Positions 28,140 through 54,462 are shown, counted from the stretch's first letter. The stretch: 64,000 nucleotides of DNA from an uncultured Planctomycetota bacterium (GCA_963849325.1 CAWKHF010000012.1:288001-352000), one strand, 5' to 3'. The notes: generated by a model not told the origin, from the sequence alone. Made by a program: numbers and translations.

Positions 28140-28148
28140 AGACCTTGT

Positions 28149-33043: not shown

Positions 33044-33064
33044 CTCTTTTCATGGGAGGTCCTC

Positions 33065-34481: not shown

Positions 34482-34482
34482 G

Positions 34483-34521: not shown

Positions 34522-34554
34522 GCTAACGCTACGATTATTAGAAAGGGCAAAGGA

Positions 34555-37220: not shown

Positions 37221-40128
37221 TCACCAGCGTAATGGCTTCTGCCACGCTTCCTTGAGGGCCGCCAGCGGTGCCCAGATGATCCATTCGCCGCTCGCCCCGG
37301 CGATGCGCAGGCGCGGTTCCTCGCACGTCTGCCCAATTGGTGTCAACGGGGTGTCACTTCCGAAGCACGAGCGGAACGCGGCCTCCTTGTCGGGTCGCAC
37401 CTCGACGACGAAGCGCGTCGTCGATTCGCTGAACAGCAGCACGTCGTCCGGCAGGCGCGGCATCGCCCAGGCGCGTCACGTCGGCGCCGATGCCGCCGGC
37501 GAAGGCCATCTCCGCCACGGCGACGGCCAGGCCGCCCTCGCTCAGGTCGTGGCACGAACGCACCAGACCGGCCATGATCGCCTCGTGCAGCTTGCGGAAG
37601 ATGCGCGGCGCCAGTTCCAGGTCCGGCCGCGGCACCGTCCCGCCGTCGAGTCCGTGCACGAGGTGGTAGTGCGAGCCGCCCATCTCGTCCCTGCGTCGCG
37701 CCGACGAGGAACAGGAGGTTGCCCGGCTCCTTCAGGTCCATCGTCACGCAGCGGCGCACGTCCGGGACGCGGCCCAGGGCGCTGATGAGCAGCGTCGGCG
37801 GGATGACGATGTTGCCGGCCGCCGGAGTGATATTCGTTCTTGAGGCTGTCCTTGCCGCTGATGAACGGCATGCCGTAGGCCAGGGCCACGTCGCGGCACG
37901 CCTCGGCCGCGCGCACCAGCGAGCCGAGCACCTCCGGCCGGTCGGTGTTGCCCCAGCAGAAGTTGTCGAGCAGGGCGATCCGCGACGGGTCGGCGCCGAC
38001 GGCGACGACGTTGCGCACCGCCTCGTCGATGGCGGCGGCGGCCATCGCGTAGGGGTCGAGGTCGCCGTAACGCGGGTTGATGCCGCAGCCGACCGCCAGG
38101 CCGGTCCACGAGCCGAGCACCGGCATGACCACCGCCGCGTCGCCGGGGCCGTCGTCGTCGACGCCGACCAGCGGCTTGACGACGCTGCCGCCCTGGACCT
38201 CGTGGTCGTACTGGCGGATGATCCATTCCTTGCTGCACACGTTCGGCGAGGCGAGGATTTTCAGCAGGACGTCGTTGAAATTCTCGGGGCGAGCGGGGGG
38301 CGTCAGCCCCCTGTTGGGTGTCAACAGGGGGCTGACACCCCCCGCTCGCCAAGTCGCCTGGCGCACCACCGGCGGCCGGCCGTCGTGCAGGAAGTGCAGG
38401 TCGAGGTCGGCGACCTGCTGCCCCTGGTAGAACAGCCGCAACCGGCCGGTCGCCTCGAAACGGCCGAGGACCGTCGCCTCCACGTCTTCGCCGGCGCACA
38501 GTTCCTGTAACTGCGGCCACGTCTCGGGCGGCACGGCCAGGACCATGCGCTCCTGCGCCTCGCGAGATCCAGATTTCCGTGTACGACAGGCCGGCGTACT
38601 TCAGCGGCGCCTGCTCGAGCTGCACCGCCGCGCCGAGCTCCTCGCCCATCTCGCCGACGGCGGAGCTGAAGCCGCCGGCGCCGCAGTCGGTGATGGCGTG
38701 ATACAGCCCCTGGTCGCGCGCCTGCAGCAGCACGTCCAGCAGCTTCTTCTCGGCGATGGCGTTGCCGATCTGCACCGCGCCGCCGCTGACCTTCTCCGAC
38801 TCCGCGGTCAGCTCGACCGAGGAGAACGTCGCGCCGTGGATGCCGTCGCGGCCGGTGCGGCCGCCGACGGCCACGATCAGGTCGCCGTCGCGCGGCTCCT
38901 TGTGGCAGCGGTCCACCGGGAGCAGGCCGACCGTGCCGCAGTAGACGAGCGGGTTGCCGAGGTAGCGGTCGTCGAAGCAGACGGCGCCGTTGACGGTCGG
39001 GATGCCCATGCGATTGCCGTAGTCGCGCACGCCGGCGACGACGCCCTTCATCACCTTCAGCGGGTGCAGCACGCCCGGCGGCAGCGACTCCGGCGGCGTG
39101 TCCGGCGGCGCGAAGCAGAAGACGTCGGTGTTGCAGATCGGCTTGGCCCCCAGGCCGGTGCCGAGCGGGTCGCGGATGACGCCGCCCAGGCCGGTGTTGG
39201 CGCCGCCGTAGGGCTCGATGGCCGACGGATGGTTGTGCGTCTCCACCTTGAAGCAGACGTGATAGCGGTCGTCGAAGCGCACGACGCCGGCGTTGTCCTC
39301 GAAGACGCTGACGCACCAGTCGTCGGCGCCGAGCCGGCGGCGGACCTCCTGCGTGGCGGCGAAGATCGTCTCCTTGAGCAGGTTGTCGTAGCGCCGAACG
39401 CTGCCGTCCTCTCGCTGGAACTCGATGCGGCCCTTGAGCGTCTTGTGCGAGCAGTGCTCCGACCACGTCTGGGCCAGCGTCTCCAGCTCCACGTCGGTCG
39501 GGTCGCGGCCCAGCTCGCGGAAATGGGCCTGGATGGTCCGCATCTCGGCGAGGCTGAGGGACAGCTGGCCGTCGCGGCTGAGCTTCTCCAGGGCCGCGTC
39601 GTCCAGGTCGCGCAGCGGCACGGTGACGAGCCGGAAGCGAGTAATCGGAGCCGAGGCTCAGGTGATCCAGGGTCAGCGGGCCGGCGACGACCTGCTCGAT
39701 CGCCTCGTTGGCGAGCACCTTGCGGAAGAGGACGGCCCGCGCCTCGGGCGGCGCCGGCGGGCCGAAGTAGCGGCGGAAGGTGCGCACCGACGCCGACGGG
39801 GATGCCGAGGTCGCGGGCGGCCTCGACGACGCTCAGCGCGGTCGGGTCCATCACGCCAGGCTTGAGCAGGACCGTGGCCAGGTGGTCGGGCGCAGGTGTT
39901 CGTTGAGGGTGCCCAGCCGGCCGGACTCGACGAGCGGATCGACCAGCAATTCGTCGGCCAGGCGCTTCGCCTGCGGCGCGACAACTCGCCCTCGACGAGA
40001 TAGCCGCGCGCCGTGCCGGTGATCCGCTCGGCGCCGTCGCCTGTGTGCGTCAGCAGGTCGTATTCTTCACCGACGCGCCGGCGCTCCCCATCGTCGCCCC
40101 TGGGCTGAATCTCGATCTCCCAGAACAT
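37221..40128 (-). CDS. purL: Phosphoribosylformylglycinamidine synthase subunit PurL (several frameshifts)
   Basis: [71 protein letters not shown]. Confidence 0.95.
38288..38350. repeat. 63-bp palindromic element in frame within purL
   Basis: GGCGAGCGGGGGGCGTCAGCCCCCTGTTG-GGTGT-CAACAGGGGGCTGACACCCCCCGCTCGCC; translates as [21 protein letters not shown]. Confidence 0.85.
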
Positions 40129-40173
40129 GCTGTCGTCTCCGTCGCACTCCGCCGCAGGCGGCTGGGTTGGATC

Positions 40174-40776
40174 TCACAAGAACCAGAGCCGGAAGACGTA
40201 GATACCGATGAAGGCGCCCACGAACAATCCGCTGATAATCAGGCCGCTGGTGGCCACGATCATGTGATGGCCGCGCGTGCGTAAGGCGGCCGCGGCCTGT
40301 CCCAGGCCGAGCACGCCCAATAGCGCGGCGCCCAGGATCAGGACCAGGGCCAGCAGGGCGACGGCAATCGTCATGCCCACGGCGGCGACGGTGATCGCCG
40401 CAATCACTTCGCCGACGACCATCAGGACCCAGGCGCCGATGCCCATTGCCAGGCCGAGGACGGCCTGGCGGAAGTGGGCACGGGCCTGCTCGGGAGCGGC
40501 CTCGCGGGATTCCAGAGCACGCTCGACGCAGGCGGCACACAGGACCTGGTCGCACCAGCGTGTGCGGCAGACTTCGCAGAAGTAATTGCCGCAACGGCCG
40601 CAGGTGCCGACCGCCTCCTGTCCGGCGTGAACGGCGCAGGCGCCCTCGCCTTCGCGGGCCGGTCGGCCGGTGCGACCCGGCGGTTCGTACAGCGGATCGC
40701 GGCAGTTAGGGCAGCGCGCACCGAGGCGCTCGCGGTCAACCGGCAAGGGATAGTCACAGGAGGGACAACGGTTCAT
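40174..40776 (-). CDS. Zinc-finger (B-box-like) membrane protein
   Basis: CPSC..CPNC; C..H...C..C...FC..C...C..C; three TM helices. Confidence 0.75.
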   Translation of the reverse strand: MNRCPSCDYPLPVDRERLGARCPNCRDPLYEPPGRTGRPAREGEGACAVHAGQEAVGTCGRCGNYFCEVCRTRWCDQVLCAACVERALESREAAPEQARAHFRQAVLGLAMGIGAWVLMVVGEVIAAITVAAVGMTIAVALLALVLILGAALLGVLGLGQAAAALRTRGHHMIVATSGLIISGLFVGAFIGIYVFRLWFL

Positions 40777-40779
40777 GGC

Positions 40780-41519
40780 CTAGCCCTGCCATTGCTTGAC
40801 GATGCTGAGCAGGGCGATCGCCGACGACCACACGACGCCGGCCAGCCCCGCCGTCACGCCGGTCATGGCCAGTCCCCTTCCGGCCAGGTGTGCCTTGCCG
40901 TCGATCTGCCGCAACGCCAGCCAACCGAGGACCAGCTCGCCGCTCGCCAGGACCAGGGCGATCAGACAAAATACCAGCGCCACGACGACCCCATTCTCCA
41001 GGGTCATGTAGACACCGATGGCCATGAAGGTCAGGAACAGGCTGACCACGGTGCTGACCAGAGCGAGGATGAAGGCGAGGAGGGCGAGCGGCGCCAGGCG
41101 GGCCGGCCGACTCAGGCCGCGGACGCGGAAGTTCTTGCACGGCCCGCACAGTGTCTGCCCTTGCAATGCGACCACACAGGCGGAGCAAAACGAGGCGTGG
41201 CAGGCGTCGCAGGTCGCTTCCCTGGGCGTCTCGTCGTGGTTGAGACAGTAAGCGGGGTTGGGACGGTGTCGGGCGCGCACGCGGCGCGGCGGCAAGGCTT
41301 CCGGCTCGGGCCAATCATCCTCGGCGGTCGGCCGGGGGTGCGCGGCCGAGACGACGGCGGCATCGGCTGGGCCTCCTCCGGTTCCGGCTCGGGGACCGTG
41401 CTCGACCACGGCACGCGATTGCCGTGGCCACATTCGCAGAAAACGAGCGTGCCGGACAGGTGCTCGGCCCGGCCGTGGCGCTTTCCGCATTGCTTGCAGG
41501 CGAACCAAATATGTCTCAT
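40780..41519 (-). CDS. Zinc-ribbon/B-box-like membrane protein; target gene of the integrated element (frameshifted)
   Basis: MRHIWFACKQCGK...FCECG..NRVP, CLNH..CDAC..FC..C, TM helices; first codons lie across the left att repeat. Confidence 0.75.
41490..41507. repeat. att site (left direct repeat)
   Basis: TTGCTTGCAGGCGAACCA. Confidence 0.9.
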
Positions 41520-41557
41520 AATAGATCGTCCTAGCCGCTCCCGAAAGGAGGAATAGA

Positions 41558-43216
41558 ATGGGCGACATGCCAAGACGCGCGTACTCCTACCTTCGGTTTT
41601 CCCACCCCAAGCAGGCTACCGGGGACACCATCCGAAGGCAAGAAGAATGGACCGCGAGCCTGTGCCGGCGGCACAGCTGGTATCTCGATGACACCCTACG
41701 CTTTGCAGACAAGGGGAGGTCCGCGTTTCACGGCGGACTCAAGGCGCTAGGGCAGTTCCGCGACCTGGTGCGACGCGAACGCATCGCGCCCGGCTCGGTG
41801 CTCGTCGTGGAGGTGCTCGACCGCATCTCCCGCGAGGAGGTTGATGATGCTTACGACATCTTCCGAGAGATCATCCGGGCCGGCATATGGATCGCTACGC
41901 GGGAACCGGAGCGCATCTATACCCGCGAGACGTGTGCTGGGAACATGCTCAATCTGCTGGAACCGCTCTTCATCTTTGCACGTGCCCACGATGAGAGCCG
42001 TGCAAAGTCTATGCGTATCCGGGAGGCGTGGGTGCATCAGCACCGAAAAGCGAGAGAGGAAAAGCAGCCGATCCAATCGCGGCCCCCTTGGTGGCTAAGG
42101 AAGGGGCAGCACGGTTATGAGTTGATCCCAGAGCACGCCGAGGCGATACGGCAGATGCGAACGCTCTGCCTATCCGGGCACGGGTACACCCAGACCGCAG
42201 GGGAATTGGCCCGGCGGCTGTTTCGCCCGCCCGGACGGAACTGGTGTATCGAGACCATCCGAAGTACGCTGAAATCTCGTCGCACGCTCGGCGAGCACCA
42301 GCCGGGACACAAGATCAAAGGCCGGCTGGTGCCGGACGGACCACCGATCCAGGGATACTACCCGACTATCTTCACTCCGGAGGAGTGGGAGGCCATACAA
42401 GGGGCGATCCAGCGCAGACAACGCAACAAGCCGGGACGGCCAGCGAAGGAATGCGCCAACCTCTTTACCGGGTTGGTATTCGAGGCGAATTCCCGGCTAC
42501 CTATGTCAAAGGGGTCCGCACGGCCGCAGCATGGGGGGAAGAAATACAACAGCCTCAAGTGTAGGAACGCTTATTATGGGATGCCGCTCTGCCGCGTTCC
42601 CTACGAGTCGCGTAGGGGACAGCCGGGATTTGAGGGGTGCGTGTTAGACACCATCGCGATGCTACGTCCCCAGGACGTGCTTGACGACGAGCGGCGATCC
42701 GACGAGCGGGAGCACCGCATCGACGCACTGACCAAACGTGTAACGGCCCTGGCACATCGCCGGGGACAACTGCAGGCGGCGGCAGCCGACCCAGAGCAGG
42801 ACGCCGCAGACATTCTACCAGCCCTGGCGACAGTACGTCGGGAGTTGGAAACGGCGGCGAAGGAGTTGAATGCCCTCAAGCTCGAAAGCCAGACAGGCCG
42901 GGCGGAAGCGCTAGCAGAGTGCCAGACGCTACAGGAACTGCGGCAACGCGCCCAGGGCGAGGAGCGGCAGGAGTTAGACCGCCGCATCAAGGCGGCGCTA
43001 CCGTCGATCATGGAATCCATCTGGATACAGTGCCAGAGAGTATCTACCCGGCATCAGATCGTACACATCCAGATATGGCTACACAGCGGCTCCATGCGCT
43101 ATGTGCAGATGCTGCCACCGAACCTCCACGGCGTCAAGCCGTGGCAGCTGGAGGAACACGACCTACGCAAGGGGCATTATGTAGGCGACGCTACAAATAT
43201 GGCCCAACCGGCGTAG
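41558..43216 (+). CDS. Large serine recombinase (integrase)
   Basis: AYSYLRFS..KQ catalytic Ser, D.GRSAF, VEVLDRISR, ESRAKS.R, YYPTIFTPEEW, NLFTGL, coiled coil; SD AGGAGG. Confidence 0.93.
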   Translation: MGDMPRRAYSYLRFSHPKQATGDTIRRQEEWTASLCRRHSWYLDDTLRFADKGRSAFHGGLKALGQFRDLVRRERIAPGSVLVVEVLDRISREEVDDAYDIFREIIRAGIWIATREPERIYTRETCAGNMLNLLEPLFIFARAHDESRAKSMRIREAWVHQHRKAREEKQPIQSRPPWWLRKGQHGYELIPEHAEAIRQMRTLCLSGHGYTQTAGELARRLFRPPGRNWCIETIRSTLKSRRTLGEHQPGHKIKGRLVPDGPPIQGYYPTIFTPEEWEAIQGAIQRRQRNKPGRPAKECANLFTGLVFEANSRLPMSKGSARPQHGGKKYNSLKCRNAYYGMPLCRVPYESRRGQPGFEGCVLDTIAMLRPQDVLDDERRSDEREHRIDALTKRVTALAHRRGQLQAAAADPEQDAADILPALATVRRELETAAKELNALKLESQTGRAEALAECQTLQELRQRAQGEERQELDRRIKAALPSIMESIWIQCQRVSTRHQIVHIQIWLHSGSMRYVQMLPPNLHGVKPWQLEEHDLRKGHYVGDATNMAQPA

Positions 43217-43628
43217 GCAACTGACCGCGAGCGCACAGTCGGCGTAAGCATCGGGAGGCCCGGAAAACCGCCGGGCCTTCGCCATCTCGGCGACCCAGGA
43301 ATCCCCATCCCAGAAGAAGCCGAACGAAGAGAGGACCACGAAGCAACCGCCAAGCATGATGCACCCCCTCGGTAGCAATCATGCACGCGCCACACCGCGT
43401 TTTCGTCACCACATCCTACCAAGCCCAACCAGATTCTCAGGACCAACGCCGGTAACTGTCAAGCAAGGGTAAGAATCCGCAACGCTGGAGCACTCAACCG
43501 CACGACACGGCCTGCCCTAACAACCGGGCTTTCCACACGCTTGTCCGCAACTATCAGTTTGCACCCGACCGGGTAGGTTGTAGTCTTGGTGAGTCCTGAA
43601 CGCTCCCTTACCCACGGCAGAGGTTGAC

Positions 43629-43865
43629 ATGAAACCAAAATTGCTGACCATCGCCGAGGCGAGCAAGAGACTAAACGTGTCCGGCACCACGCTACGGCGG
43701 ATGATCCGCACCGGCGAATTCCCGCCGCCCGTTCGGCGGAACAGCCGCTGGGTCCGTGTCCCGGCATCGGACATCGAAAACTACCTGACCAAACTGGCGG
43801 AACGCCGCCAGACCGAGCAACCCCGACACCAGGCCGACACCACCGGCCGCCAATTGGAGACATGA
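43629..43865 (+). CDS. AlpA/excisionase-type HTH DNA-binding protein
   Basis: LLTIAEASKRLNVSGTTLRRMIRTGEFPPPVR...RVPASDIENYL. Confidence 0.85.
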   Translation: MKPKLLTIAEASKRLNVSGTTLRRMIRTGEFPPPVRRNSRWVRVPASDIENYLTKLAERRQTEQPRHQADTTGRQLET

Positions 43866-43868
43866 ACC

Positions 43869-45114
43869 ATGAAAGCCCGCGTTTTGAAAGCCTTCGACGA
43901 TTGCAAGGCCGGCGACATCATCGACGTGCCGCGAGCCACGAGCAATTTCGCCGTGCAGAGAGGCGATTTGGAGGAAATCAAGGACGCTGAAACCCTACTC
44001 GCGCAAAAGGTCCGTCGCGCGATCGAAAGGCGCACGATCAGGAAAAAAGTCAGGTCGCTGGAGAGGCCCGCGTTGAGCTTCGGCCAGTTCCTGACCCTGC
44101 TAGCCAAGAGTGGAGGCCGCGACTTCCCCGCGCTCGCCCAGAAGGCGGCGCTGAACGAAGCGTCTGGGATCGAGGGCGGTTATCTCGCGCCACAGGGCTT
44201 CGCCAAAACTATTTTCCAGGCCAGCGAGCGGGGCCGAATCCTGCGCCGGAGCTACCCTATTCCCCACGAGCCACCGTGAAGAGTTAATCCCCTTGTGGGA
44301 TATGACAACTCCACAGACGGCCGGCACAACGCCGTTCTTCGGCGGGCTGAAATTGCAGTGGTACGAGGAAGGAGTCGAACCGGCCGAAAGTGAACCGGCG
44401 ACCAAGCAGCTGGCGATGGTCCCGAACTATCTAGGCGCGCTGGTGTTGGCCTATAACGCTTGGCTCGCGGACGCCGCTCGAGGGACCGTAGAAGCGTGGC
44501 TCTTGGCCCTGTTCGGAGAAGCCGTGGCGTGGTACGAGGAATACGGCTTCCTCCAGGGCAAGGGGGCGGGCCAACCGCTCGGCATCCTCAACAGCGGCGC
44601 AACCATCAACGTCAGCCGCGCTGTCGCCGGCGACATCGAGTTCGCCGACATTGGCGGGATGCTCAACAAGCTACTTCCGGAGTCCATCAATCGCTGTTTC
44701 TGGATGTACTCGCCGACCTGTCAAAGCGCCCTGATGCAACTCAAGGACGGCGCGAATCGGGCCGTGATGCTGCAAGTCGGAGCGACGCCCGCCGGACGCG
44801 GACAGTGGACCATCGCCGGAATCCCTGCTTATCCGACCGAGAAGTTGCCAGCCCTAGGGACCAAGGGAGACCTCGTACTCATCGACCCGCGCTGGTATGC
44901 AATCAGTGACTTCATAGCCGAGGAGGGACAGCCGGCGGGCGGCGGTCGTAGCCTAGCCGTAAGTTTCTCTGGCGAGGCGAGTCAGACGGTCTTCACCAAG
45001 AACCAGACGGTCTTTATGATTTCACAGCGCCTCGACGCACGGCCGGTTATCGACAGCCCCATCACCTTGCAGGACGGCGTGACGCAGGTGTCGCCGTTCG
45101 TGGCCCTTAACTAA
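43869..45114 (+). CDS. HK97-family phage major capsid protein (frameshift at C-run ~44261)
   Basis: ALNEASGIEGGYLAPQ, W.EEG....ES.P, FLQGKGAGQPLGILN, LMQLKD, G.P.Y.TE.LPALG..GD..L.D, F.KNQT.F....R.D..P, SPFVAL. Confidence 0.88.
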
Positions 45115-45240
45115 GACATTTGGGCTCCGCGAACACGGCGAGGCGACGGATTGCCTAGCCGTGGAGTCGCGCCACGGTGATGCTGAACCTTTTCGTGCAA
45201 TCCACATCGAAAACTACCCGCAAGCCTTGAGGGAGAAGAC

Positions 45241-46215
45241 ATGAGCAGCCTGGCCGACGAAATCATTGCCGCGATGGAAGCGGGCGGAACCAAGAAGGAA
45301 CCCGCAACGTTCGACGAGGTAGACGCTTTCCATCTCCAAAACGAGGCCGAACAAGTGTTGAAGTACCTCCCGCTACTCGGACAAAGCGGCTACCTCGTCG
45401 AGGGCTGGTCGCACCTACTCGCCGGCTTCCCCCGCGTCGGCAAGTCCGAATTACTCTACGCCTGCATGGTCGAATGGTTACGAGCGGGCCAGACCATTCT
45501 CTACTTCACCGAGGAGGGCCGTGAGCTATGGCGGCAACGACTTCAGCGCCAACGAGTACCCGCCGAGGGATTACAACTGGTGTTCGCGCTCGGTGGCAAG
45601 TCCCTGGACCTCCTAACGCGGATGAGGAAGAGTGGGGAGCCTATCGTTGTGATCGACACCATCCGCAGCCTGCAAGTCCTGCCGGCCGACGAGAACGACA
45701 ACGCCGCCGTCGCCCGCGCCCTCGAACCCTGGGTGACTGCCGCACGCGAGATGAGCAAGACCCTGATTCTCAGCCACCATGCCCGCAAGGGAGGCGGCGA
45801 GCACGGCGAGGGCATCTCCGGCGGTCATGCCCTCTTCGGGGCCGTGGACGTGGCCCTGGAAGTCTGCCGCAGTACGACACCGGCTCGGCGGATCATCAAG
45901 GCCCATGCTCGCCTAATCCAGCCCGCCGACCTCCTCTACGAGCGGGACGAGGATGGCAGCCTGGCCGCTCTCGGCGATCCCAGCGGCGTCGGCCTGGCGG
46001 AAGTCGGCCGCCGCATCCTCGACGTGATGGATCACCAATGGGCCAAGACGGCCGACGTACACGACCGCCTGGAGGAACCCCGGCCCAGCGCGGAACAACT
46101 TCGCCTCGCTCTGGCCGCCGAGGCCCGCTGCGGCCGCCTGGAACGCGATCCGCCCATCAGCGTCGCCAACGTCCAGGGCAAGACCACTCGCTGGCGGCTC
46201 CTCGGAGGCGAGTAA
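45241..46215 (+). CDS. AAA/RecA-like (RepA/SF4-type) helicase-like replication protein
   Basis: Walker A AGFPRVGKS, YFTEE, Walker B VVIDT, LSHHARKG...SG..AL.GAVD; probable C-terminal wHTH. Confidence 0.82.
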   Translation: MSSLADEIIAAMEAGGTKKEPATFDEVDAFHLQNEAEQVLKYLPLLGQSGYLVEGWSHLLAGFPRVGKSELLYACMVEWLRAGQTILYFTEEGRELWRQRLQRQRVPAEGLQLVFALGGKSLDLLTRMRKSGEPIVVIDTIRSLQVLPADENDNAAVARALEPWVTAAREMSKTLILSHHARKGGGEHGEGISGGHALFGAVDVALEVCRSTTPARRIIKAHARLIQPADLLYERDEDGSLAALGDPSGVGLAEVGRRILDVMDHQWAKTADVHDRLEEPRPSAEQLRLALAAEARCGRLERDPPISVANVQGKTTRWRLLGGE

Positions 46216-46332
46216 CTTCACTTCCCACCTATAGGAGAGACCCCCTTGTATGTGAGGTGAAGAAAAGTGAAGCGAAGCGTTTACGCTTCACTTTCTTCCC
46301 ACAGTCCCTCTCTTAAGGAGGGAAGTTCAGTT
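46214..46332. repeat. Long imperfect inverted repeat directly after the helicase (candidate origin)
   Basis: AACTTCACTTCCC...GAAGAAAAGTGAAGCG / CGCTTCACTTTCTTC...GGGAAGTTCAGTT. Confidence 0.55.
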
Positions 46333-46363
46333 CATCCAGCGCTCGACACCAACCGGAGGCATC

Positions 46364-46606
46364 ATGTCTGAACTGAAAGACGTTGTAAACAAACTGTGCA
46401 AAGAGCTTGACCGGCTCTTCCACACGCCGGACCTCTTGCACCGCGAGCAAGGTTATCCCAATCTAGCCGAACTTCTGGCTAGCATTAACGCAGGCATCCA
46501 CCGAGCCGCCGACGCTCTCGACCGGATGAACCCGCCGCCACAACCGCCGCCGTTCGTGCCGGAGGGCTTCACGGACGCGGAGTTGCTGGCCGGCAAGGTC
46601 AAGTAG
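46364..46606 (+). CDS. Small hypothetical protein (80 aa)
   Basis: SD GGAGG, ATG, helical sequence with Pro-rich tail; same strand as element genes. Confidence 0.6.
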   Translation: MSELKDVVNKLCKELDRLFHTPDLLHREQGYPNLAELLASINAGIHRAADALDRMNPPPQPPPFVPEGFTDAELLAGKVK

Positions 46607-47221
46607 TGTCCGTCCGCCGCACTCACGGCCCCAAGCGATGTCGTCCAGGCGTCGTTTCGGGGCCGATTCCTGCACCGCCAGCAGGCCAAGCTGCACCTTT
46701 CCTGTCGTCCCGCTGCACACCCTCGACAAAACCTCCACAACCGGCATCGCAGCCTTTTCTTGTCCATATACCGATCAAATGTTCACTAAAGCGATAAACA
46801 AGAGGAGTGAAGGTAGATCGTGTTGCCGGGATGGCCGCGTTTTCCGGGCTGGGAGGGTAGGTTGCGTCCGGCAGCTGGGAGGCGCGTGCGGGGGTGCGTG
46901 CGGCCCCTGCGCCGCCCTCCGCGTCCCGGCGGCCGTGGCCCGCACGGACGCTCTGGGCGGCTCCGGGCCTACGGTGCGCCGGGACGTATCCGCCGCCCCC
47001 TGCGGCCGTCTGTCCCGCTGCCCTCACGGCGACGGACAGACGGCCTGCGGGCGGCTCGGTGGTGCGTGTGTGTGTGTGTGTGCGGGGCTGTACGCCCCCT
47101 GGTGTCGCGCAGCGACACCGCCGTCGCTGCGCGACGGCTGCCGGCCCTTACAGGCCGGCGGGGGCTGCGGTGTGCGTGCTGCGGGACACATCGCGGTGAG
47201 ACCCTGCCTTGCGTGCCCGGC

Positions 47222-47404
47222 TGCCTGCTGCTGCCGGCCCAGGTGGTGCGCGACATCACGGCTGTTCGTGTTGATGGCCGGCAGCAGCAGGCAACTCGGG
47301 CTCGTGTGGGGCAGACCGTGCCTTGCGGGCGCACCGGCATCTGGCTGCGGCCCAGGTAGTGCGCGACATCCCGGTTGTTCGAGCTACGGCCGCAGCCAGA
47401 TGCC
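47222..47404. other. Two tandem hairpins with different stems and a conserved ~35-nt apical motif (candidate structured RNA/ssDNA)
   Basis: 18-bp and 17-bp perfect stems enclosing CAGGTRGTGCGCGACATCMCGGYTGTTCG. Confidence 0.6.
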
Positions 47405-47543
47405 ACCACGTCTACATTCGGCAACCGCATCCATGCGGGGTTCGAGGCGGGCAGGACGCCCGCCAGCTGGCCCATGACGACGAGGATGCGGCTCCAGCAG
47501 ACCCAAGGCCACGGGTGGCCTTGGGCTGCTGAGCTTCCTACGG

Positions 47544-47757
47544 ATGCAGGGACGCAGCCTGCGGAGCATTGCCGAGGAGGAGGGGGTGAGTCAGGAACAG
47601 GTACGCAAGGATTCTCGATCCTGCTGTCAACCAGTTGACACCTGACCTACCACCCGCCCAGGTGCTCGGCAAGGACGGCAAGGCGTATCCGGCGGACAAC
47701 TCCGCACGCAAGCCCGCGCTACCCGGTCCCGTCGTGGACAACGCCGCCGCTCCGTAG
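47544..47757 (+). pseudogene. HTH fragment with G.DGK.YP motif (frameshift near 47610)
   Basis: MQGRSLRSIAEEEGVSQEQVRKD / ...VNQLTP...VLGKDGKAYPA. Confidence 0.45.
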
Positions 47758-48587
47758 TCGGCTCCTCAGCATTTTCTTATTTATAAGACCGCTAGCACCC
47801 GTGCTTGCCTATCTTCGTTCCGTTCCCCCACGTCATCACGCCCAGCCTTCCCGCTGTCACGCCCTCTCGTGTTCACCGCGTCGCGTCATGGGCCATCCTG
47901 GCCCATAGTCGCGTCGCGGCGGGCCATCCTGGCCCTCAAGCTGTGGGCGGGTGCCCCGCCCCTGTTTGTCTCCGCGTCACTCGCGGTCGGGTTGTGACGG
48001 TGTATCGTGACCCTACCCGTCCTGCTGCTACCGCCGTGCCCTAGCAGATGCTTACCCGGTTTCCACGGCGTCGTAAGACAGACTAGCCTATGAGGTCCGC
48101 AGAGCACACCCGGCCAGACAGAAGCATTTTGAGGTCGTTCGTGTCGTACTGGCTGACGAGTCGTCACGTCCTCCCCCGCCCGCGACAGATTCCGCCAGTG
48201 TCGCGGGCGGCCTTTTTGGCCCCCGCGACACTGGCGGCTTCCGCCCAGGGGGGCGGAAGTGCGGTAGTGCGTAACGGTGTGTCGTGCTGTGACGCTCAGC
48301 ACGTCGTCTCGCCCTCCCCCCCGCGTAAGAACGCCGCCGGAGCGCGGGTTGTCCCCGCGTCCGGCGGCGTCGCAGCCCTTGCAGGCTGCGAAGAAGCTAC
48401 CAGGCGACGTCGTGACAGCCCTATTCGATGCTGCGAGGTTGACGGGTCATCATGCGCTGCTCTTTTCTTTTCTTTTCTCTTTTGAGTACAAAAGAGAAAA
48501 GAAAAGAAACAAAAGAAAAGAGAAAACAAAGACAGACACTCACACGCCCCAAGGGACAGGATGACGGTCAAACCCGTGAAATGATCG

Positions 48588-48760
48588 CGTTTTGTCCAAG
48601 TGCCCTAGGTGCTGTTGTAGCAGGTATGTCAAGGTAGGTTGATTAAAAGCAATTTTGCTGTCAGAGAAGTTGTACGGTCAATGAAACTAGGCAAAATTGC
48701 TTTTAATCATTCCACCTTGACTACCTGCTATTACATCATCAGGGGCACTTGAACAAAACG
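48588..48760. repeat. AT-rich ~70-bp imperfect inverted repeat with 32-nt spacer
   Basis: Arms 48588-48658 and 48691-48760; innermost TGATTAAAAGCAATTTTGC/GCAAAATTGCTTTTAATCA perfect. Confidence 0.85.
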
Positions 48761-49030
48761 GGTTAGACTTGCACGGGGAGGCGAGTGCGACCCGCCATTA
48801 CACGCCGGGTCGGAGAGGGAGGAGGAGGAGGAGGAGGAGTGGGGTGGGGGTGGCGCGGGCCGCAAGCGGCTCATATGTTCATGTGTTCATAGTTCATCGT
48901 GGGTCGTTGGCCGGTCTCCCCGCTGGGTGCCGCTGCGCTGGGCTGGGATGGGTGGTTACGGTCGGGGGCTGGGCGGCGGCCGCCTCCGGCGGCCGCCCGG
49001 TGTCTCCTTGTGCTCTCCGCCTTGTCCGTG

Positions 49031-49099
49031 TTTTTGTGCGGTTTTTGCGGGTTTTTCTGCATTTTCCTCTTGACAGCTACATGTCGTTTGTGGTAGAAT
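49031..49099 (+). promoter_or_regulatory. Near-consensus sigma70 promoter with phased T-tracts upstream
   Basis: TTGACA(49070)-18 nt-TAGAAT(49094) with TG extension; T4-5 tracts at ~10-11 bp spacing. Confidence 0.7.
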
Positions 49100-49177
49100 C
49101 GCTGTCTGCAATGGCGATGGGGGGCGGTTGGCCCCGCCCCCCATCTAACCCGAACCCCGTGCTAGCGGAGTCGAGTC

Positions 49178-49507
49178 ATGTCTAAGGGTATCCGTTCGTC
49201 GTCGGTCTGTCTATTCCACATTACCCCCCGCCGCAATCTCCAATCGATCTACAAGTTCGGCTTGCTGCCGTGCTTCGCTCGGGGCGTGTTGCGTGCCGTC
49301 TGGCTGTGCTCGGCTTCCCGCCGCCGCTGGGCCGCCGTCCACGTCGAGGACCAAAACTGGACTTCGGACATCGTTGTCATCCGCCTCATCCTGCCGCGTG
49401 CCTGGCTCCGCCGCTTCCGTCGCGGCATCTGGCATTGCTCGCAGCCGATCCCCCCCTCGTGCATTGTGTCCGTCTCCGCCCCGTCCCCGCTGTCCCCCGC
49501 CGCCTGA
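49178..49507 (+). CDS. Small ADP-ribosyltransferase-fold-like protein (Tpt1/KptA C-domain or DarT-like signature)
   Basis: LFHITPRRNLQSIYKFGLLP...VWL...IW....IPP..I pattern; SD GGAG. Confidence 0.55.
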   Translation: MSKGIRSSSVCLFHITPRRNLQSIYKFGLLPCFARGVLRAVWLCSASRRRWAAVHVEDQNWTSDIVVIRLILPRAWLRRFRRGIWHCSQPIPPSCIVSVSAPSPLSPAA

Positions 49508-49564
49508 ACTCTTGGCCCGCCCGATCCGCCGCCCAGCGGATCGGCCTTCTTGGAGTATTCGGAT

Positions 49565-49936
49565 ATGTCTACTCGTTCATATCGTCTGTGCTTGCGCATC
49601 GACAACGGCGTGGAACGCCACTACGCCGTCCGCCCGCTGGCAGCTGCCGACCTGGAAACGCCGTTCCTGTGCGGCTATGCCCTAACGGAACGCACGCAAA
49701 ATTCACACCCGACCTACCATGTCCGCCTTGCCGCCGATGGCATTGTCAACTGCTCGTGTCCGCAGTGGAACAAGGCCGAGACCTGCAAGCACGCCGACGC
49801 CCTCGTGGCCGCCGGCCTGCTGCCGGTGCGGCTCGTCGAAGTGCTCGCCGCCACCCGCCACTTGCTCGACCTCGCCGAAGCGAAGATCGCCGCCATGCCC
49901 AAGCCCCGATCCCGCAAGAAGAAGACGGACAACTGA
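49565..49936 (+). CDS. SWIM zinc-finger protein
   Basis: Y.V......CSCP......CKH..AL. Confidence 0.75.
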   Translation: MSTRSYRLCLRIDNGVERHYAVRPLAAADLETPFLCGYALTERTQNSHPTYHVRLAADGIVNCSCPQWNKAETCKHADALVAAGLLPVRLVEVLAATRHLLDLAEAKIAAMPKPRSRKKKTDN

Positions 49937-49988
49937 TCGTCGCCACGCGGACCGGCCGCAAGGCCGGTCCCCTCGACACGGAGGAAAC

Positions 49989-50342
49989 ATGGCCCGACAC
50001 CGCAGACCGAACACCGCCGACGACCGCCGCCAGCTACTGGCCGCTGCCGCCGCCGTCCTCGGTGTCGCCGCCGACGCAGTTATTCTCGTCGCCGGCGCCG
50101 TCGAGATCGTCCGCCCCGAGCCGCAGCCGGTTCGTCCTGGCCGACTGCCCGAGGGCATGAGCGCCTACGATGCCGCCATTCTGGGGGCGCTCGCTGACAG
50201 GCCATTGTCAGCCCAGCAGATCGCCCACCGCAGCGGACACCGCCACAACAGCTACTTTCGTGGCCGTCTCGCCGCTCTTGTCGAGGCAGGCCACGTCCGA
50301 CAAACCCGCCGAGGGTACAGTCTCGGCGGGCCTGGCAGGTAG
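49989..50342 (+). CDS. Winged-helix DNA-binding protein
   Basis: SD GGAGG; ILGALADRPLSAQQIA.RSG....YFRGRLAALVEAGHV....GYSL. Confidence 0.7.
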   Translation: MARHRRPNTADDRRQLLAAAAAVLGVAADAVILVAGAVEIVRPEPQPVRPGRLPEGMSAYDAAILGALADRPLSAQQIAHRSGHRHNSYFRGRLAALVEAGHVRQTRRGYSLGGPGR

Positions 50343-50416
50343 CAGCTGGCAATCGTCTACTTGTTCCTGCCGGCGGGGCGGGTATCCTCGCCGGCATCAC
50401 TCACAGGAGGTTTCCC

Positions 50417-50635
50417 ATGCTAACCATCGAACGCCGCGCCTTCCTCGAAGCGATCGTGCTTGCCGCCCTCATCCCCAACTGGCAGCGAACCAACCCCTTC
50501 GAGCCACCCGAGCAGACCCGGCAACGCCTTGCCGTCGAGGCGCTCAAGATTGTCGATTCGTTCCTACGCGTGACCGGCGACGCGAACTTGCCGCCCCTCG
50601 GCGTGCCGGCCAACGACCCCAGCGTTCCCTTTTGA
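50417..50635 (+). CDS. Small hypothetical protein (72 aa)
   Basis: SD AGGAGG, ATG, co-oriented with cargo operon. Confidence 0.6.
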   Translation: MLTIERRAFLEAIVLAALIPNWQRTNPFEPPEQTRQRLAVEALKIVDSFLRVTGDANLPPLGVPANDPSVPF

Positions 50636-50708
50636 ACGATCCGCTCCGCGCCCTCGGCGACGTTCGCCCAGGGCCGGGCGCTTCCCATCGCCCACGGAGG
50701 TTTGCACC

Positions 50709-51038
50709 ATGAAGAAGCTCGTTGCCGTCGCCGTAGCCCTCGCCGCCCTGGGCGCTGGTCGCGCCGAGGACAAGACCGCCACCCAGAAGCCCGACGAGCC
50801 AGCCCCGGTCATCGTCAAGACCCAGCTGCCCCGGTACTTCAAGCAGCTCGGCTTGACCGACAAGCAGCGGAAGGAGGTCTACAGGGTCCGTGCTGGCTAC
50901 GCCGCCAAGATCGCCAAGCTCAACGAGGAGATCGCTACCTTGCGGTTGAAAGAGAAGGGCGAGGTCGAGGGCGTTCTGACCGAGGCTCAACGGAAACGCC
51001 TCCAGGAGATGCGGGCCGGCTCCGATTCCAAGAAGTGA
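50709..51038 (+). CDS. Small secreted LTxxQ (Spy/CpxP-like) helical protein
   Basis: Signal peptide; LP.YFKQLGLTDKQ...VLTEAQRKRL; SD GGAGG; GCAA-loop hairpin follows at 51052-51077. Confidence 0.7.
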   Translation: MKKLVAVAVALAALGAGRAEDKTATQKPDEPAPVIVKTQLPRYFKQLGLTDKQRKEVYRVRAGYAAKIAKLNEEIATLRLKEKGEVEGVLTEAQRKRLQEMRAGSDSKK

Positions 51039-51115
51039 CACACCAGGCATCGACCGGCCGGGGCAACTCGGCCGGTCCCCATAAGAGGGCAATGATGAGA
51101 ACAAAGTCCCAAACC

Positions 51116-51133
51116 TTGCTTGCAGGCGAACCA
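51116..51133. repeat. att site (right direct repeat)
   Basis: TTGCTTGCAGGCGAACCA followed by GATCAT (original host ATG at 51139 on minus strand). Confidence 0.9.
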
Positions 51134-51135
51134 GA

Positions 51136-51924
51136 TCATGATGTTTTCTCGCTCGAACGCACGGCGTCACCGGGACGTTCGCCGAGGACCGCCGCCATTT
51201 GCAGCACGAACTTCTCGGCGCTCTCGTACTCGCCCGGCGTCAGGTCGAGGCGCTTCTCGAAGAACTGGGCGGCGGCCTGGAACAGCCGGGCGCGTTCGAG
51301 GACGCGCAGCTGATCGCGGCGCAAGCACAAGTCGAGCAACGTCTGCTTCTGCTCGCGGTCGAGCTGGACGAGGCGTTGACGGAGCAGCGCCAACCGCTGA
51401 CGGTCGGCCTCGCTGCGCGCGTCGGGCAGGGCCAGGATCGGCTGGACGTTGCGCTCGACGTGAACCACGAGGGTATCCGCGGCCAGGTCGCCGAGGCGGC
51501 GCTGCTCGCGATTGCCGGCGGCGACGGCGAAGCCGAGCAGTCCCGGACCCAGAGGCAGCGGCACGGGCAAGCTGTCGGCGACGCGCAGCAGATTGCGAAC
51601 CGCCGACTGAAAGAAGGTGATGGACGTGCCGCGCCACTGGATGACGCGAATGCCGAGCAGGTACTTGCCCGGTGTTTGTCCGTGCCAGAGCCATTCAAAA
51701 AAGATGAAATAACCCCACAGGACCACGAACTGTCCGATCACGATCACCGCCATGCCCAGGCCGGGCCGGCCGAGCGTGAGGACGCCACCGACGACGGCGC
51801 CCATGACGATCAGCAGCAGCACCGCCAGCGCATCGATCAGCCAGGCCAGGAAGCGCGAACCCAGCCCGGCGACGCGGTAGCGGAACGGCACTTTCTCGGT
51901 GGTGAGCACCTCATGGCGGATCAC
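51136..51924 (-). CDS. RDD family membrane protein
   Basis: AGLGSRFLAWLID, GQTPGK..LGIRV, RNLLR..D, RRLGDLAADTLVV. Confidence 0.92.
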   Translation of the reverse strand: MIRHEVLTTEKVPFRYRVAGLGSRFLAWLIDALAVLLLIVMGAVVGGVLTLGRPGLGMAVIVIGQFVVLWGYFIFFEWLWHGQTPGKYLLGIRVIQWRGTSITFFQSAVRNLLRVADSLPVPLPLGPGLLGFAVAAGNREQRRLGDLAADTLVVHVERNVQPILALPDARSEADRQRLALLRQRLVQLDREQKQTLLDLCLRRDQLRVLERARLFQAAAQFFEKRLDLTPGEYESAEKFVLQMAAVLGERPGDAVRSSEKTS

Positions 51925-52919
51925 GCCTGGTCCTCCCGCGCCGCCGCTCGGCCCCAGCCGAGCAACAGAATGTAGGCCAGAAACAGCAGGGCGAAGACGG
52001 CGGCGACGGCCAACTTCAATCCCTTGCCGAGAAACCAGTCCGGCGCCCGCGCCACGCCAGCCTCCAGACACGCAGCCACGGCCAGAAGCGGCACACAGCC
52101 GAATAGCATCAGCACCGACTGCTTGCCTAGGCGAGCCAACTCCTCGCGCCGCGGCCACGGCCGCGCTCGCAGGAAGCCCTGCGCCAGCACGAAGCCGGCC
52201 GCTCCGCCGATGAGGCAAGCCGGGATCTCCAGCACGCCATGCGGCAGGATGCCGGTGGCGTAGGCCGTCAGCTGATGGGCCTCGGCGAAGACGGAGCCGA
52301 GAGCGCCCAGAAGAACGCCATTATAGAACATCAGCCAGGCCGTGCCGAGTCCGAGCGTGATGCCCAGGGCGAAGGCGACCAGGCTGACGCTGACGTTGTG
52401 CGTGAACAAAAAGCTCGAAAACGCGGTCAGGTCATCCGTCGTGTACATGGGCGCGGCCTGCTCCTCGCCCTCGGCCGGCGGCTGGATGGTCGGCATGTCC
52501 GTGGGCAGCAGGTAGGCGCGGGCAACCTCCTTGTCGTAGGTGCAGGCCAGGTAGCCGAAGACGGCGCCCGCCGCGAACAGCAGCGTGGCCAACAGGAAGT
52601 GCGGCAGGTAACGACGAAAGACGGCCGGGTAGCCCCAGAAGAGATAACGCAGCAAGCCCCGCACCTCGACGCGCGTTTTGCCATAAATGGCGAGGTAAGC
52701 GCGGGCAACCAAATCATTCAAATAGCGCTCGGTGGCCTCGCCGCTGACGAAGGTCTGGGCCTGGTTTAAGTCCGAGGCGGCGCGGCGATAGAGGCGGCCG
52801 AACTCGACGGCTTGCTCGTCGTCCAGTGAGGCCAGACCGCTGCCCTCGACACGCTGAAGGATTGCTTCGAGGCGTTTCCAGTCGGGGCGGCGCTGCCGGA
52901 GAAACGTCGCCAAATCCAT
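51921..52919 (-). CDS. Stage II sporulation protein M (SpoIIM/DUF95) family membrane protein
   Basis: W.RLE, LYR..ASDL, YLN.LV.RA, THN..V, NG..LG, ILPHGVLEI, LEA. Confidence 0.9.
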   Translation of the reverse strand: MDLATFLRQRRPDWKRLEAILQRVEGSGLASLDDEQAVEFGRLYRRAASDLNQAQTFVSGEATERYLNDLVARAYLAIYGKTRVEVRGLLRYLFWGYPAVFRRYLPHFLLATLLFAAGAVFGYLACTYDKEVARAYLLPTDMPTIQPPAEGEEQAAPMYTTDDLTAFSSFLFTHNVSVSLVAFALGITLGLGTAWLMFYNGVLLGALGSVFAEAHQLTAYATGILPHGVLEIPACLIGGAAGFVLAQGFLRARPWPRREELARLGKQSVLMLFGCVPLLAVAACLEAGVARAPDWFLGKGLKLAVAAVFALLFLAYILLLGWGRAAAREDQA

Positions 52920-52955
52920 ACCAGTCACCTCATCGCGGACCACGAAGACAATTCA

Positions 52956-53098
52956 TTCACCACGGAAAACACGGAAAGCACGGAAAAAAGACAAAAAGAG
53001 AGGAAAAGAATAAAAAGTGCCGCCTCTCCTTTGACTCTTAAGTCTTCCCAGTTCTTCTTTGTCTTTTTTCCGTGTTTTCCGTGCTTCCCGTGGCGGAA
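52956..53098. repeat. Inverted-repeat element (ACCACGGAAAACACGGAAAGCACGG family) with A-rich/T-rich interior
   Basis: CACGGAAA tandem units mirrored by TTCCGTG units. Confidence 0.75.
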
Positions 53099-53107
53099 AG
53101 GTTTTTC

Positions 53108-54462
53108 TTACATCCGTACCCCTGTTTTCAGAGCCAGGTAGCGATTCACGGCGTCAATCGTCAATCGATCCGGCACGGTATCGAGCACCAGGACGCCCTG
53201 TCGTTCGAGGCTACGTAACAATTCGGTGCGTCCATCGAGCAGGTCGCGGGCCACGAGGACGTCATACAGTTCGTCGGCGTCTTCGGGCTGACGAGCGGCC
53301 AATTCCTGCAGAGCCACGTCGGCCACGGCCAGCGTCAGCGGGAGGTGAAAGCGGCGCAGCAGTGCCGCCGCGTCGAGATACTCGCGCGATACTACATCGT
53401 CGAGCATGTCCGTGAAAACCATCGTCAGGGCGCGCTTGGGGTGCTGGGCGATGAGATGGCCGAACGCCTCGCGGTAGTTGACGTAGCACAGCTCCGGCTT
53501 GATGCTGTACAGCGCTTGCAGGAAGCGAGCGTGCTGGCGCGGCCCTTGGCCGGCGGTAAATACAGATGGACCGTGTGCGAGAACACCAGCAGACCGAGAT
53601 TGTCCTGGAACGTCTGGCTGACGTGCGCCAGCATGAGGACGGCGTTGATGGCGTGGTCGAGCTTGGTCAGCGTGCCGACGCGGGCCGCCATCATGCGGCC
53701 AACGTCCAGGCAGAAAAGGATGTCCTGGCTGTGCTCGCTCTCGAAGACGCTGGTGATCGGCTTGTTGTGGCGGGCCGTCGCCTTCCAGCTGACGTGGCGA
53801 TAATCGTCGTCTGGCGTGTAATCGCGGTAATGGCTGAACTCGCGGCCGGTGCCCGGCAGACGCTTGGCTCGATAGCCGCCAGCGCGGACAAGGGTGGTGC
53901 GCACCAGAGCTTCATAGCGGCGCACCTCGAACAGGTTGGGATAGACCTGAACGCCCTCCGCGGCGGGCAGAAGGCGATCGACGCAAGCCAGGCCAAGCGG
54001 ACCCCGGCAGCGCACGGCCACGTCGCCGAAGGCGAAGTTGCCGCGCTCGGTCGGCAAGAGCCGATAGCGAAGGCGAGCCCAGCCGTGGGCCGGCACGTCC
54101 GCGTCCAGGAGCGGCGGCTCGGCCCGGAAGCTCGGCGGCGGCTGATCGCGCAACCGCAGCCGCAAGCGCCGCCGGCCGTGATTTTCGACGACGATCATCA
54201 CGTCGTTGTCCACGCCCAGCGACAGGCGGGCCGGCCGTTCTCGCCGCACGCGCAAACACGCCGGCCGGCTCCTTCGCCGGGCCAACAAAGCATCCAGACC
54301 GAGGAGCAGAAAGATGCCGGCGTCGAAGCCGAACACCAGCCCGCGGACACCCCCGGCGAACTCTCCGGCGTGAGCCAGCGGAAGCAGCGGGAGGACGTAC
54401 CCGGTCAGCCACAGCACCAGGCCGAACAGGAGTAACCAGACCGTCGCGCGCGTCGGGACCAT
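53108..54462 (-). CDS. DUF58 (vWA-associated) domain protein (frameshift near 53530)
   Basis: RG.F.FG, VYPN, G.EF...RDY.P.DD.RHVSWKATAR, LDVGR.M, FTD. Confidence 0.9.

Follow-up and report, generated by a model that had tools for sequence, protein, structure and literature searches.

The core of a phage-inducible chromosomal island (PICI) has been described as an integrase, a regulator, a primase-replicase, a capsid-morphogenesis gene and the small terminase gene terS, and capsid-forming PICIs (cfPICIs) encode, besides the capsid, a portal, a protease, a head-tail adaptor and connector, terS and terL (PMC10085698). In the PICI-like tycheposons of Prochlorococcus, which form one evolutionarily linked group with hallmark genes of its own, the gene for the major capsid protein (MCP) or terS is the sole packaging gene (Hackl et al., 10.1101/2020.12.28.424599), and the PLE of Vibrio cholerae and the marine VEIMEs are satellites with serine recombinases (PMC9618062); these descriptions follow the portions of the three accounts available to us. 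Here we analyzed a 64,000-nucleotide stretch of DNA from an uncultured Planctomycetota bacterium (GCA_963849325.1, CAWKHF010000012.1:288001-352000; hereafter the window), which is contig C12, 288001-352000, of a host genome of 8.16 Mb in 14 contigs (G000). The host appears to be a soil-type planctomycete and, from its named relatives, a member of the family Gemmataceae (Planctomycetota). Within the window lies a 9.6-kb island that encodes a large serine recombinase (LSR) and an HK97-type MCP as its lone structural protein. On the comparisons presented below, we consider it somewhat better than an even bet, at roughly 55%, that this island is a phage satellite of a terminase-portal lineage that uses a capsid protein of its own.

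The island is a discrete, mobile, site-specifically integrating element, inserted by the LSR into the first codons of a Zn-ribbon gene with duplication of an 18-bp core (Table 1). The exact direct repeat of this core, TTGCTTGCAGGCGAACCA, which had been predicted from the window alone and was recovered exactly at 41490-41507 and 51116-51133, extends to 21 nt if one mismatch is allowed; by our own arithmetic, chance alone would produce such an exact 18-mer pair about 0.001 times in 12 kb. With one core copy counted, the island between the repeats measures 9,626 bp, and its GC content of 0.631 is lower than that of the 10-kb flanks (0.688 and 0.669). The target gene formerly started at an ATG that shares bases with the stop codon of an upstream RDD gene (ATGA); the island end now provides a new start, the target protein beginning MRHIWFACKQC with the island and MIWFACKQC without it. 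The left flank was matched in 7 of 10 other same-genus genomes searched. In all seven the site is uninterrupted, with contiguous flanks that overlap by exactly the core and with one core copy per genome carrying 0-3 mismatches. An empty site for this island is also found in genome G504, the host of a relative described below. The island is single-copy within its own genome, and no tRNA genes were found within 38000-54000.

All island genes are on the plus strand, in the order LSR, HTH_17 gene, capsid gene, AAA_25 gene, an 80-aa open reading frame (ORF), a long ORF-poor stretch and five small genes. Pfam and PHROG matches thereby bore out the one-strand order of integrase, AlpA, HK97 capsid and AAA helicase that had been read from the sequence, and no match to terminase large subunit (TerL), portal, protease, tail or lysis families was obtained among the island ORFs with Pfam and PHROGs, nor to the structural and packaging families in a six-frame PHROG scan of the ORF-poor stretch, in agreement with the predicted absence of such genes. 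With the same two resources, we saw no conjugation or mobilization genes among the island ORFs. The LSR starts 51 bp inside attL and shows the catalytic Resolvase and the Recombinase domains of large serine recombinases, and the att core is duplicated at both ends. The earlier label "AlpA/Xis" for the second gene holds insofar as its product is HTH_17/MerR-type and excisionase-like, but no Phage_AlpA match was listed; we retain "AlpA-like" as a convenience. This protein is 69% identical to its homologue in the closest relative and has a weak match to the small terminase family phrog_57 (3.5e-5). The AAA_25 protein, in which a primase domain is absent, is presumed to be a replication initiator or helicase; some of its 62 database homologues are fused to DnaB_N (PF00772) or PrimPol (PF09250).

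Relatives of the island form one modular family. A search with the AAA_25 protein, by an alignment (A1) of 19 of the 62 homologues, gave 8 genome and 80 metagenome loci, 30 of these 88 being at least 6 kb long; single-sequence scans made without an alignment gave no close relatives for the AAA_25 protein among genome contigs or for the capsid protein among viral contigs. The neighboring genes of the island were present in only 2 of the 88 loci, L064 and L072, which represent one sequence. L064 is a contig of a Gemmataceae metagenome-assembled genome, G504, of the same genus as G000, and it carries the AlpA-like gene (69% identity), an intact 417-aa capsid gene, the AAA_25 gene (65%), a 94-aa ORF, a 2.4-kb stretch of little periodicity and then small genes: a 132-aa homologue of the island 109-aa KptA-like protein, the SWIM gene (55%), the winged-helix (wHTH) gene (49%) and the LTXXQ gene (50%), with a different LSR at the far end. 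A Zn_ribbon_recom domain was matched only in this second LSR. Compared with the empty site in G000, the inserted segment of G504 is ~14.3 kb long and includes a 1629-aa kinase/WD40 gene; a direct repeat was not found at its ends, its limits being taken from the G000 empty site only.

A search with the capsid protein matched 101 of 267 genomes of the order, G000 included, and 40 places were examined. Among the best 20, the capsid gene lies beside a portal gene in 11 (8 of these also with TerL), is accompanied only by genes for a 170-aa protein and a head-tail adaptor in five, and stands alone in four, all of them in genome G615; no LSR, AlpA or AAA_25 match was found in these 20 places. The other 20 contained two further island-type elements. 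In L187 (G612, contig C99) the MCP and AAA_25 genes are followed by LTXXQ, a 1.4-kb gap, a 133-aa protein, SWIM, an AAA_24 ATPase, wHTH and a tyrosine integrase, and in L204 (G616, contig C20) by a 2.7-kb gap, a 133-aa protein, SWIM and wHTH. No terminase, portal or adaptor match was obtained in the sequence around any of the four MCP-bearing elements. In all four the capsid gene adjoins the replicase gene, and in G000 and G504 it directly follows the AlpA-like gene, while the integrases (two LSRs and one tyrosine integrase) and the insertion sites differ. Recurrence of the gene set in three further genomes, where integrases and sites differ, shows that the island is not a one-off deletion remnant. 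Most capsid homologues do adjoin terminase and portal genes, the setting that the original prediction had associated with a remnant of a full prophage, but the island synteny is separate from these and recurrent.

Other members lack a capsid match. Among ten places examined after a profile search with the KptA-like protein, contig C36 of G615 (L246) encodes an LSR that is 49% identical to that of the island and occupies the same position, AlpA, a 1.9-kb slot, AAA_25, LTXXQ, a small protein, SWIM and wHTH, and genome G507 carries the backbone with a tyrosine integrase on two contigs that we took as adjacent. In G615 and G507, the capsid slot between AlpA and AAA_25 is occupied instead by unrelated small ORFs (of 130 and 145 aa in G507), some of them coiled-coil-like. 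We considered whether the slot ORFs of the MCP-less L165 and L246 are a stand-alone capsid N-terminal domain, and an alignment (A4) gave this no support. In G616 and G614, two places each have the small-protein/SWIM module with no capsid match within 20 kb. The family, with at least four members in which the capsid gene lies next to the replicase gene, is small and has so far been seen only in Gemmataceae. The KptA-like, SWIM, wHTH and LTXXQ genes, which had been called cargo in the original prediction, recur downstream and are instead conserved core genes of the family. As for the synteny search that it had recommended, the capsid-AAA_25 core was indeed found in three other Gemmataceae genomes, albeit with differing integrases, but not among the best IMG/VR loci described below.

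The capsid gene of the island is in two frames in this assembly (43869-44279, then 44293-45114, the second frame being open from ~44236), with a one-base shift near 44245-44255. The PF05065 match falls in the second frame, and the N-terminal part was assigned to the first by alignment to intact relatives, a metagenome protein of 402 aa with 58% identity (P0066) and the 417-aa, single-frame protein of L064; frameshift apart, no part of the capsid protein is missing from this alignment. In the same assembly, rpoB is spread over frames 2/0/1/2 and rpoC over 2/0/1 (contig C1, 334967-343005), which amounts to ~1 indel per 1.6 kb across the two genes. The assembly is rich in indel errors, and its completeness of 84.7%, low despite high contiguity, fits with this. 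Because rpoB and rpoC are also frameshifted, the capsid frameshift is probably an assembly error, and with this indel rate in essential genes, broken genes of G000 are not callable as pseudogenes without polishing. Although identity between elements is only 37-43%, the capsid gene is full-length and open in two short-read-type assemblies, and it appears to be under selection. The "compact, intact satellite" of the original prediction is in these respects half sustained: the insertion is discrete, compact and site-specific, but its intactness is uncertain owing to the frameshift.

The nearest genome relatives of the island capsid protein, at 43-50% identity, are the MCPs of a TerL-portal-protease-MCP-adaptor cluster. 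As annotated on a short-read relative, this ~14-kb cluster encodes TerL, portal, a likely protease, MCP, a 157-170-aa protein, unknowns, a head-tail adaptor, a ParB-like protein and an ABC-like ATPase; the G000 copy lies on contig C6 at ~25200-39200 (L008/L009), with relatives at L046-L055 and L251-L255. Cluster proteins are 80-90% identical within the genus, the chromosomal flanks differ between genomes, the cluster-type MCP was matched in 100 of 251 genomes of the family, and IMG/VR lists the cluster as viral contigs. Either a small temperate phage lineage or an element like a gene transfer agent is conceivable. The sole Phage_portal and Terminase_6N matches of the G000 genome fall in the contig C6 cluster, as does the one PF05065 match outside the island. 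A capsid gene of this lineage is likewise present in each of the four MCP-bearing hosts, adjoined by TerL and portal in G000, G504 and G616; the copy in G612 is accompanied within 20 kb by the 170-aa protein and adaptor only. Island-type capsid proteins keep the strongly conserved C terminus of the phage family and a scaffolding-type N-terminal domain, the latter being ~100 aa ahead of the capsid fold in the island type versus ~140 aa in the cluster type. A maximum-likelihood tree built from 33 capsid sequences gave branch lengths of 2.28 and 1.86 substitutions per site for the island and L064, the median being 0.088; the cluster-type branches are short and follow genera. The placement of the island and L064 is unsure because their branches are very long. 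On these comparisons, we take the island capsid protein to be a rapidly diverging branch of a phage lineage of the terminase-portal-protease-capsid type, and the single G000 copy of that lineage to be a candidate helper. The four lone capsid genes of G615 (L057-L060, on contigs C28, C4, C7 and C5) are HK97-type, encode 424 aa, are located near 10000-11270 and share 96-98% nucleotide identity, with no portal or terminase match in the surrounding 20 kb; the L057 gene adjoins an FGE-sulfatase-family gene, an AAA ATPase and IS4/IS5 transposases. These lone capsids group in the tree with the capsid protein of the G504 element, a placement that is again unsure owing to long branches.

If the island is a satellite of this lineage, infection by, or induction of, a terminase-portal-protease-capsid helper phage would trigger excision of the element, and the AAA_25 protein would replicate it from an origin within the ORF-poor stretch. 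The element would then provide its own divergent HK97 capsid protein, with a scaffolding-type N-terminal domain ~40 aa shorter than that of the helper type, for assembly on the helper portal with the helper protease and terminase, giving particles that carry the element and that possibly have smaller heads suited to 10-14 kb. The KptA-like, SWIM and wHTH genes, under a strong promoter, may serve as a regulatory or interference module. A more detailed version, which we put forward as doubtful speculation, is a satellite that brings only the coat protein: a fast-evolving capsid whose scaffolding domain is shortened would commandeer portal, protease and terminase from a resident Gemmataceae phage lineage to form small heads sized for 10-14 kb, the 1.4-2.7-kb stretch would be a structured RNA or DNA origin and packaging signal, and the KptA-like enzyme would modify the nucleic-acid ends of helper or host.

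Several points weigh against reading the island as a satellite. That lifestyle is deduced from gene content, and excision, a circular form, induction and encapsidation are presumed. A small terminase was not found among the island ORFs or in the six-frame scan of the ORF-poor stretch, nor was a pac or cos site found, and beyond capsid-gene homology the island shares no sequence with the candidate helper cluster or with the rest of the genome and therefore offers no common pac/cos candidate. The cluster itself has no recognizable tail genes, and particle formation by it is presumed. The island synteny occurs in none of the best 80 IMG/VR loci with related capsid genes, 35 of which have a portal and 14 TerL; these 80 loci contain no KptA-like, SWIM, wHTH, LTXXQ, AlpA-like or LSR match and a single weak AAA_25 match (26% identity). 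At least six relatives carry the backbone or the ADP-ribosyltransferase (ART)-SWIM module with no capsid match, and such capsid-less siblings indicate that the capsid gene is dispensable for persistence of the element and could be accessory. AlphaFold2 (AF2) modeling of the L064 capsid protein from an 11-row alignment did not yield a usable structure (pLDDT 44.7, pTM 0.26), and the capsid frameshift of the island could be real.

The likeliest alternative, improbable in our estimation yet deserving serious consideration, is an integrative plasmid-like replicon in which the capsid-fold gene is an exchangeable accessory, for example, a decoy that poisons the assembly of related phages in defense or an encapsulin-like shell, with the element spreading otherwise, such as by vesicles, transformation or generalized transduction. 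Relatives with the same backbone and no capsid gene, with other small ORFs in the G507 and G615 slot, speak for this explanation, as does an AAA_25 family that is mostly without capsid genes (only 2 of 88 loci, one sequence, had one). The lone G615 capsid copies beside an FGE-sulfatase gene and IS transposases indicate that the capsid family is prone to nonphage contexts, and fast capsid evolution fits an arms-race or decoy role. The constant position of the capsid gene next to the replicase gene in four of four MCP-bearing members nevertheless speaks against a freely exchanged accessory, as does retention of the scaffolding-type N-terminal domain and of the conserved phage C terminus, and no conjugation or mobilization genes were seen among the island ORFs. 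Variation in carrying a capsid-related gene is not peculiar to plasmid-like replicons either, being equally a property of PICIs and tycheposons in the available portions of their descriptions (PMC10085698; 10.1101/2020.12.28.424599). As to a shell function, the island capsid has a ~100-aa N-terminal extension and a mobile-element setting between HTH and replicase genes, with no cargo-like enzyme of the encapsulin-operon type adjacent. An encapsulin shell gene, by comparison, typically has no scaffolding domain and sits beside a cargo enzyme outside mobile or phage contexts.

We regard as improbable that the island arose by decay, through deletion of packaging and tail genes, from a small temperate phage belonging to the terminase-portal-capsid lineage. 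The capsid protein does belong to that phage family, its gene is frameshifted in this assembly, and at least one cluster of the lineage (L196) adjoins an LSR 27% identical to that of the island. However, the same reduced gene set is shared by four elements, each in a different genome and at a different site and with three different integrases among them, and independent decay would not converge in this way. The AAA_25, KptA-like, SWIM, wHTH and LTXXQ genes are also without counterparts in the phage clusters examined, one weak AAA_25 match excepted, and none of the five was seen next to the MCP gene in the best 20 genome loci; the boundaries are clean, and assembly quality accounts for the frameshift. 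A minimal autonomous virus-like element, in which the capsid alone packages the replicon and unrecognized genes of the ORF-poor stretch maybe supply the rest, could draw on ~2.5 kb without assigned function and on several unannotated small ORFs, but we find it highly improbable given the lack of codon periodicity in this stretch in the window and in a short-read relative, the lack of a structural match in six frames and the known need of tailed-phage HK97-fold capsids for a portal and terminase to package double-stranded DNA.

Table 1. Coordinates of the island features in the window
Feature	Position	Strand	Basis or remarks
Target gene, Zn-ribbon/DUF4190 membrane protein	40780..41519	-	first codons now from island end
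attL core	41490..41507		left copy of TTGCTTGCAGGCGAACCA, within codons 3-8 of minus-strand Zn-ribbon gene
Large serine recombinase (LSR), 552 aa	41558..43216	+	Resolvase 2e-11, Recombinase 1.5e-10; phrog_95 integrase 6e-54
HTH_17/excisionase-like DNA-binding protein (AlpA-like), 78 aa	43629..43865	+	HTH_17 1e-11, MerR 3.6e-7, phrog_66 excisionase/regulator 1.8e-12
HK97-type major capsid protein (MCP) gene	43869..45114	+	PF05065 7.5e-23, profile positions 48-276; phrog_10 major head protein
AAA_25 RepA/DnaB-like ATPase, 324 aa	45241..46215	+	AAA_25 9.4e-15
80-aa ORF	46364..46606	+	coding-like GC periodicity; no Pfam/PHROG family match
ORF-poor, hairpin-rich stretch, ~2.5 kb	46607..49177		little codon periodicity; direct and inverted repeats
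KptA/Tpt1-like (ADP-ribosyltransferase-type fold) protein, 109 aa	49178..49507	+	AF2 model and Foldseek
SWIM-type zinc-finger protein, 128 aa	49550..49936	+	SWIM 0.015; 55% identical to L064 homologue
Winged-helix (wHTH) DNA-binding protein	49719..50342	+	weak HVO_A0261_N; phrog_2440 regulator 2.2e-4; 49% identical to L064 homologue
72-aa ORF	50417..50635	+	coding-like periodicity; 47% identical homologue in L243
Secreted LTXXQ (Spy/CpxP-like) protein, 109 aa	50709..51038	+	LTXXQ 1.5e-4, below gathering score; signal-peptide-like N terminus by eye
attR core	51116..51133		right copy of 18-bp repeat; then original ATG of target gene

The ORF-poor stretch, which has an equivalent of 1.4-2.7 kb in L064, L187 and L204, is preceded by a terminator-like hairpin (46274-46289) upstream of the 80-aa ORF. 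It contains direct repeats (47199-47268 and 47313-47381), a perfect 21-bp stem (48464-48509) and nested inverted repeats (48588-48760), and it shares with L064 only short collinear GC-rich hairpins (47120-47163, 48335-48366 and 48977-49001), one of them with paired changes on both arms. Codon periodicity was not seen in this stretch of the window or of the short-read relative L064. The six-frame PHROG scan, covering 36 window and 33 L064 stop-to-stop frames, gave one weak HTH match besides its lack of structural or packaging matches, and Rfam at E<=1 gave only sub-threshold miRNA-type hairpin matches in the island and L064. A small frameshifted HTH gene lies at ~47.5-47.76 kb inside the stretch, its split state being a probable second assembly error. 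Just upstream of the small-gene block is a strong sigma-70-like promoter, TTGACA-18-TAGAAT at 49070-49099, with 11 of 12 matches and an extended TG. Simple repeats, (GT)n at 47068-47084 and (GGA)n at 48815-48840, also occur here, their lengths being unreliable given the error-prone assembly.

Among the small genes, the 109-aa protein is KptA/Tpt1-like at the level of the predicted fold only: its AF2 model (pLDDT 83.7) has KptA/Tpt1 RNA 2'-phosphotransferases as top Foldseek matches in the PDB (E 6e-5, TM 0.62-0.65 by query, 22-26% identity), and a lead from the protein Atlas agrees. A profile of the 109-133-aa KptA-like protein has matches in 21 of the 267 genomes of the order. Its gene is multi-copy in several Gemmataceae (for example, seven places in G409, six in G413 and five in G616), the protein Atlas places KptA-look-alike clusters in viruses, and the gene would seem to be frequent among mobile elements. 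The SWIM match is weak yet recurrent in three members (0.015 in the island, 0.0018 in L064 and 8.4e-4 in L187). The true start of the wHTH gene is probably inside the ORF at 49719-50342, with the conserved part at roughly 49950-50342, and the L064 homologue matches HTH_20 at 1.5e-5. Homologues of the LTXXQ protein are present in L064, L187, L243 and L246.

Three side observations concern the integrase, AlpA-like and replication genes. A promoter-like site, TTGACA-18-GAGAAT (10 of 12 matches), on the minus strand at 43433-43462 between the LSR and HTH_17 genes is directed into the LSR gene, and it might drive an antisense transcript or be due to chance. In a phage-type cluster of G409 (L195, contig C3), an AlpA/HTH_17 homologue at 15242-15424 lies directly upstream of TerL in the usual place of the small terminase, which hints that HTH_17 proteins may act in packaging recognition in this lineage. 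In G034 (L014, contig C17, 1015-4985), a 745-aa ORF has a C-terminal AAA_25 region 51% identical to that of the island and an N-terminal part that is primase-polymerase-like by eye; with an HTH gene and a tyrosine integrase on either side (also by eye) and no capsid gene, it has the look of an integrative replicon akin to the island, one in which the primase-helicase is complete.

A full-text literature search found no paper linking phage satellites or phage-inducible chromosomal islands with Planctomycetota or Planctomycetes. If the island is a satellite, satellite biology would extend to a phylum with very few known phages, and the island would be a natural case of a satellite carrying a coat protein only, in which it would be testable how far a capsid protein and its scaffolding domain alone set head assembly and head size. 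A backbone that occurs with a serine or tyrosine integrase and with or without a capsid gene likewise offers a compact system for the gain and loss of hijacking modules, and the two LSRs with mapped attachment sites are possibly useful for genetic tools in Planctomycetota.

Among known systems, PLEs remodel helper capsids with other proteins. PLEs and VEIMEs resemble the island in LSR integration, and they differ in that a capsid gene is not mentioned for them in the available portion of their description. The island resembles PICIs, as outlined in the available portion of the PICI account, in size and in its order of integrase, AlpA-type regulator, replication protein and capsid-related gene, with no tail, holin or portal gene. 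By function it would fill four of the five PICI core roles, the integrase role by the LSR at one end, the regulator role by the HTH_17 protein (MerR 3.6e-7, phrog_66 1.8e-12), the capsid-related role by the MCP and, putatively, the primase-replicase role by an AAA_25 helicase-type ATPase with no primase domain; terS was not found, the nearest approach being the weak phrog_57 match (3.5e-5) of the HTH_17 protein. In contrast to most PICIs, the island has a serine rather than a tyrosine integrase, and its capsid gene encodes a full MCP, not a capsid-morphogenesis or redirection protein. With cfPICIs it shares a capsid protein of its own, whereas all the other packaging genes reported for cfPICIs are absent from it.

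The likeness to tycheposons is close, as far as the accessible part of their description extends. Both are small integrative elements, roughly 10-20 kb long, in which an integrase is combined with an HTH protein of the excisionase type, a replication helicase or primase and a lone structural gene; both have siblings that share the backbone without the packaging gene, and in both the satellite lifestyle has been deduced from gene content. By description only, the island differs in its LSR (tyrosine integrase in a relative), its protein-coding target, its AAA_25 replicase and its Planctomycetota host, and its KptA-like/SWIM/wHTH module and long ORF-poor stretch are not described for tycheposons in that part of the account. 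The original prediction that this combination was not recognizable from described families was therefore overstated, with lone-MCP tycheposons (10.1101/2020.12.28.424599) and LSR satellites (PMC9618062) both described. Lone-capsid PICI-like elements have already been predicted, serine-recombinase satellites are known, and the Gemmataceae family is a variant on them.

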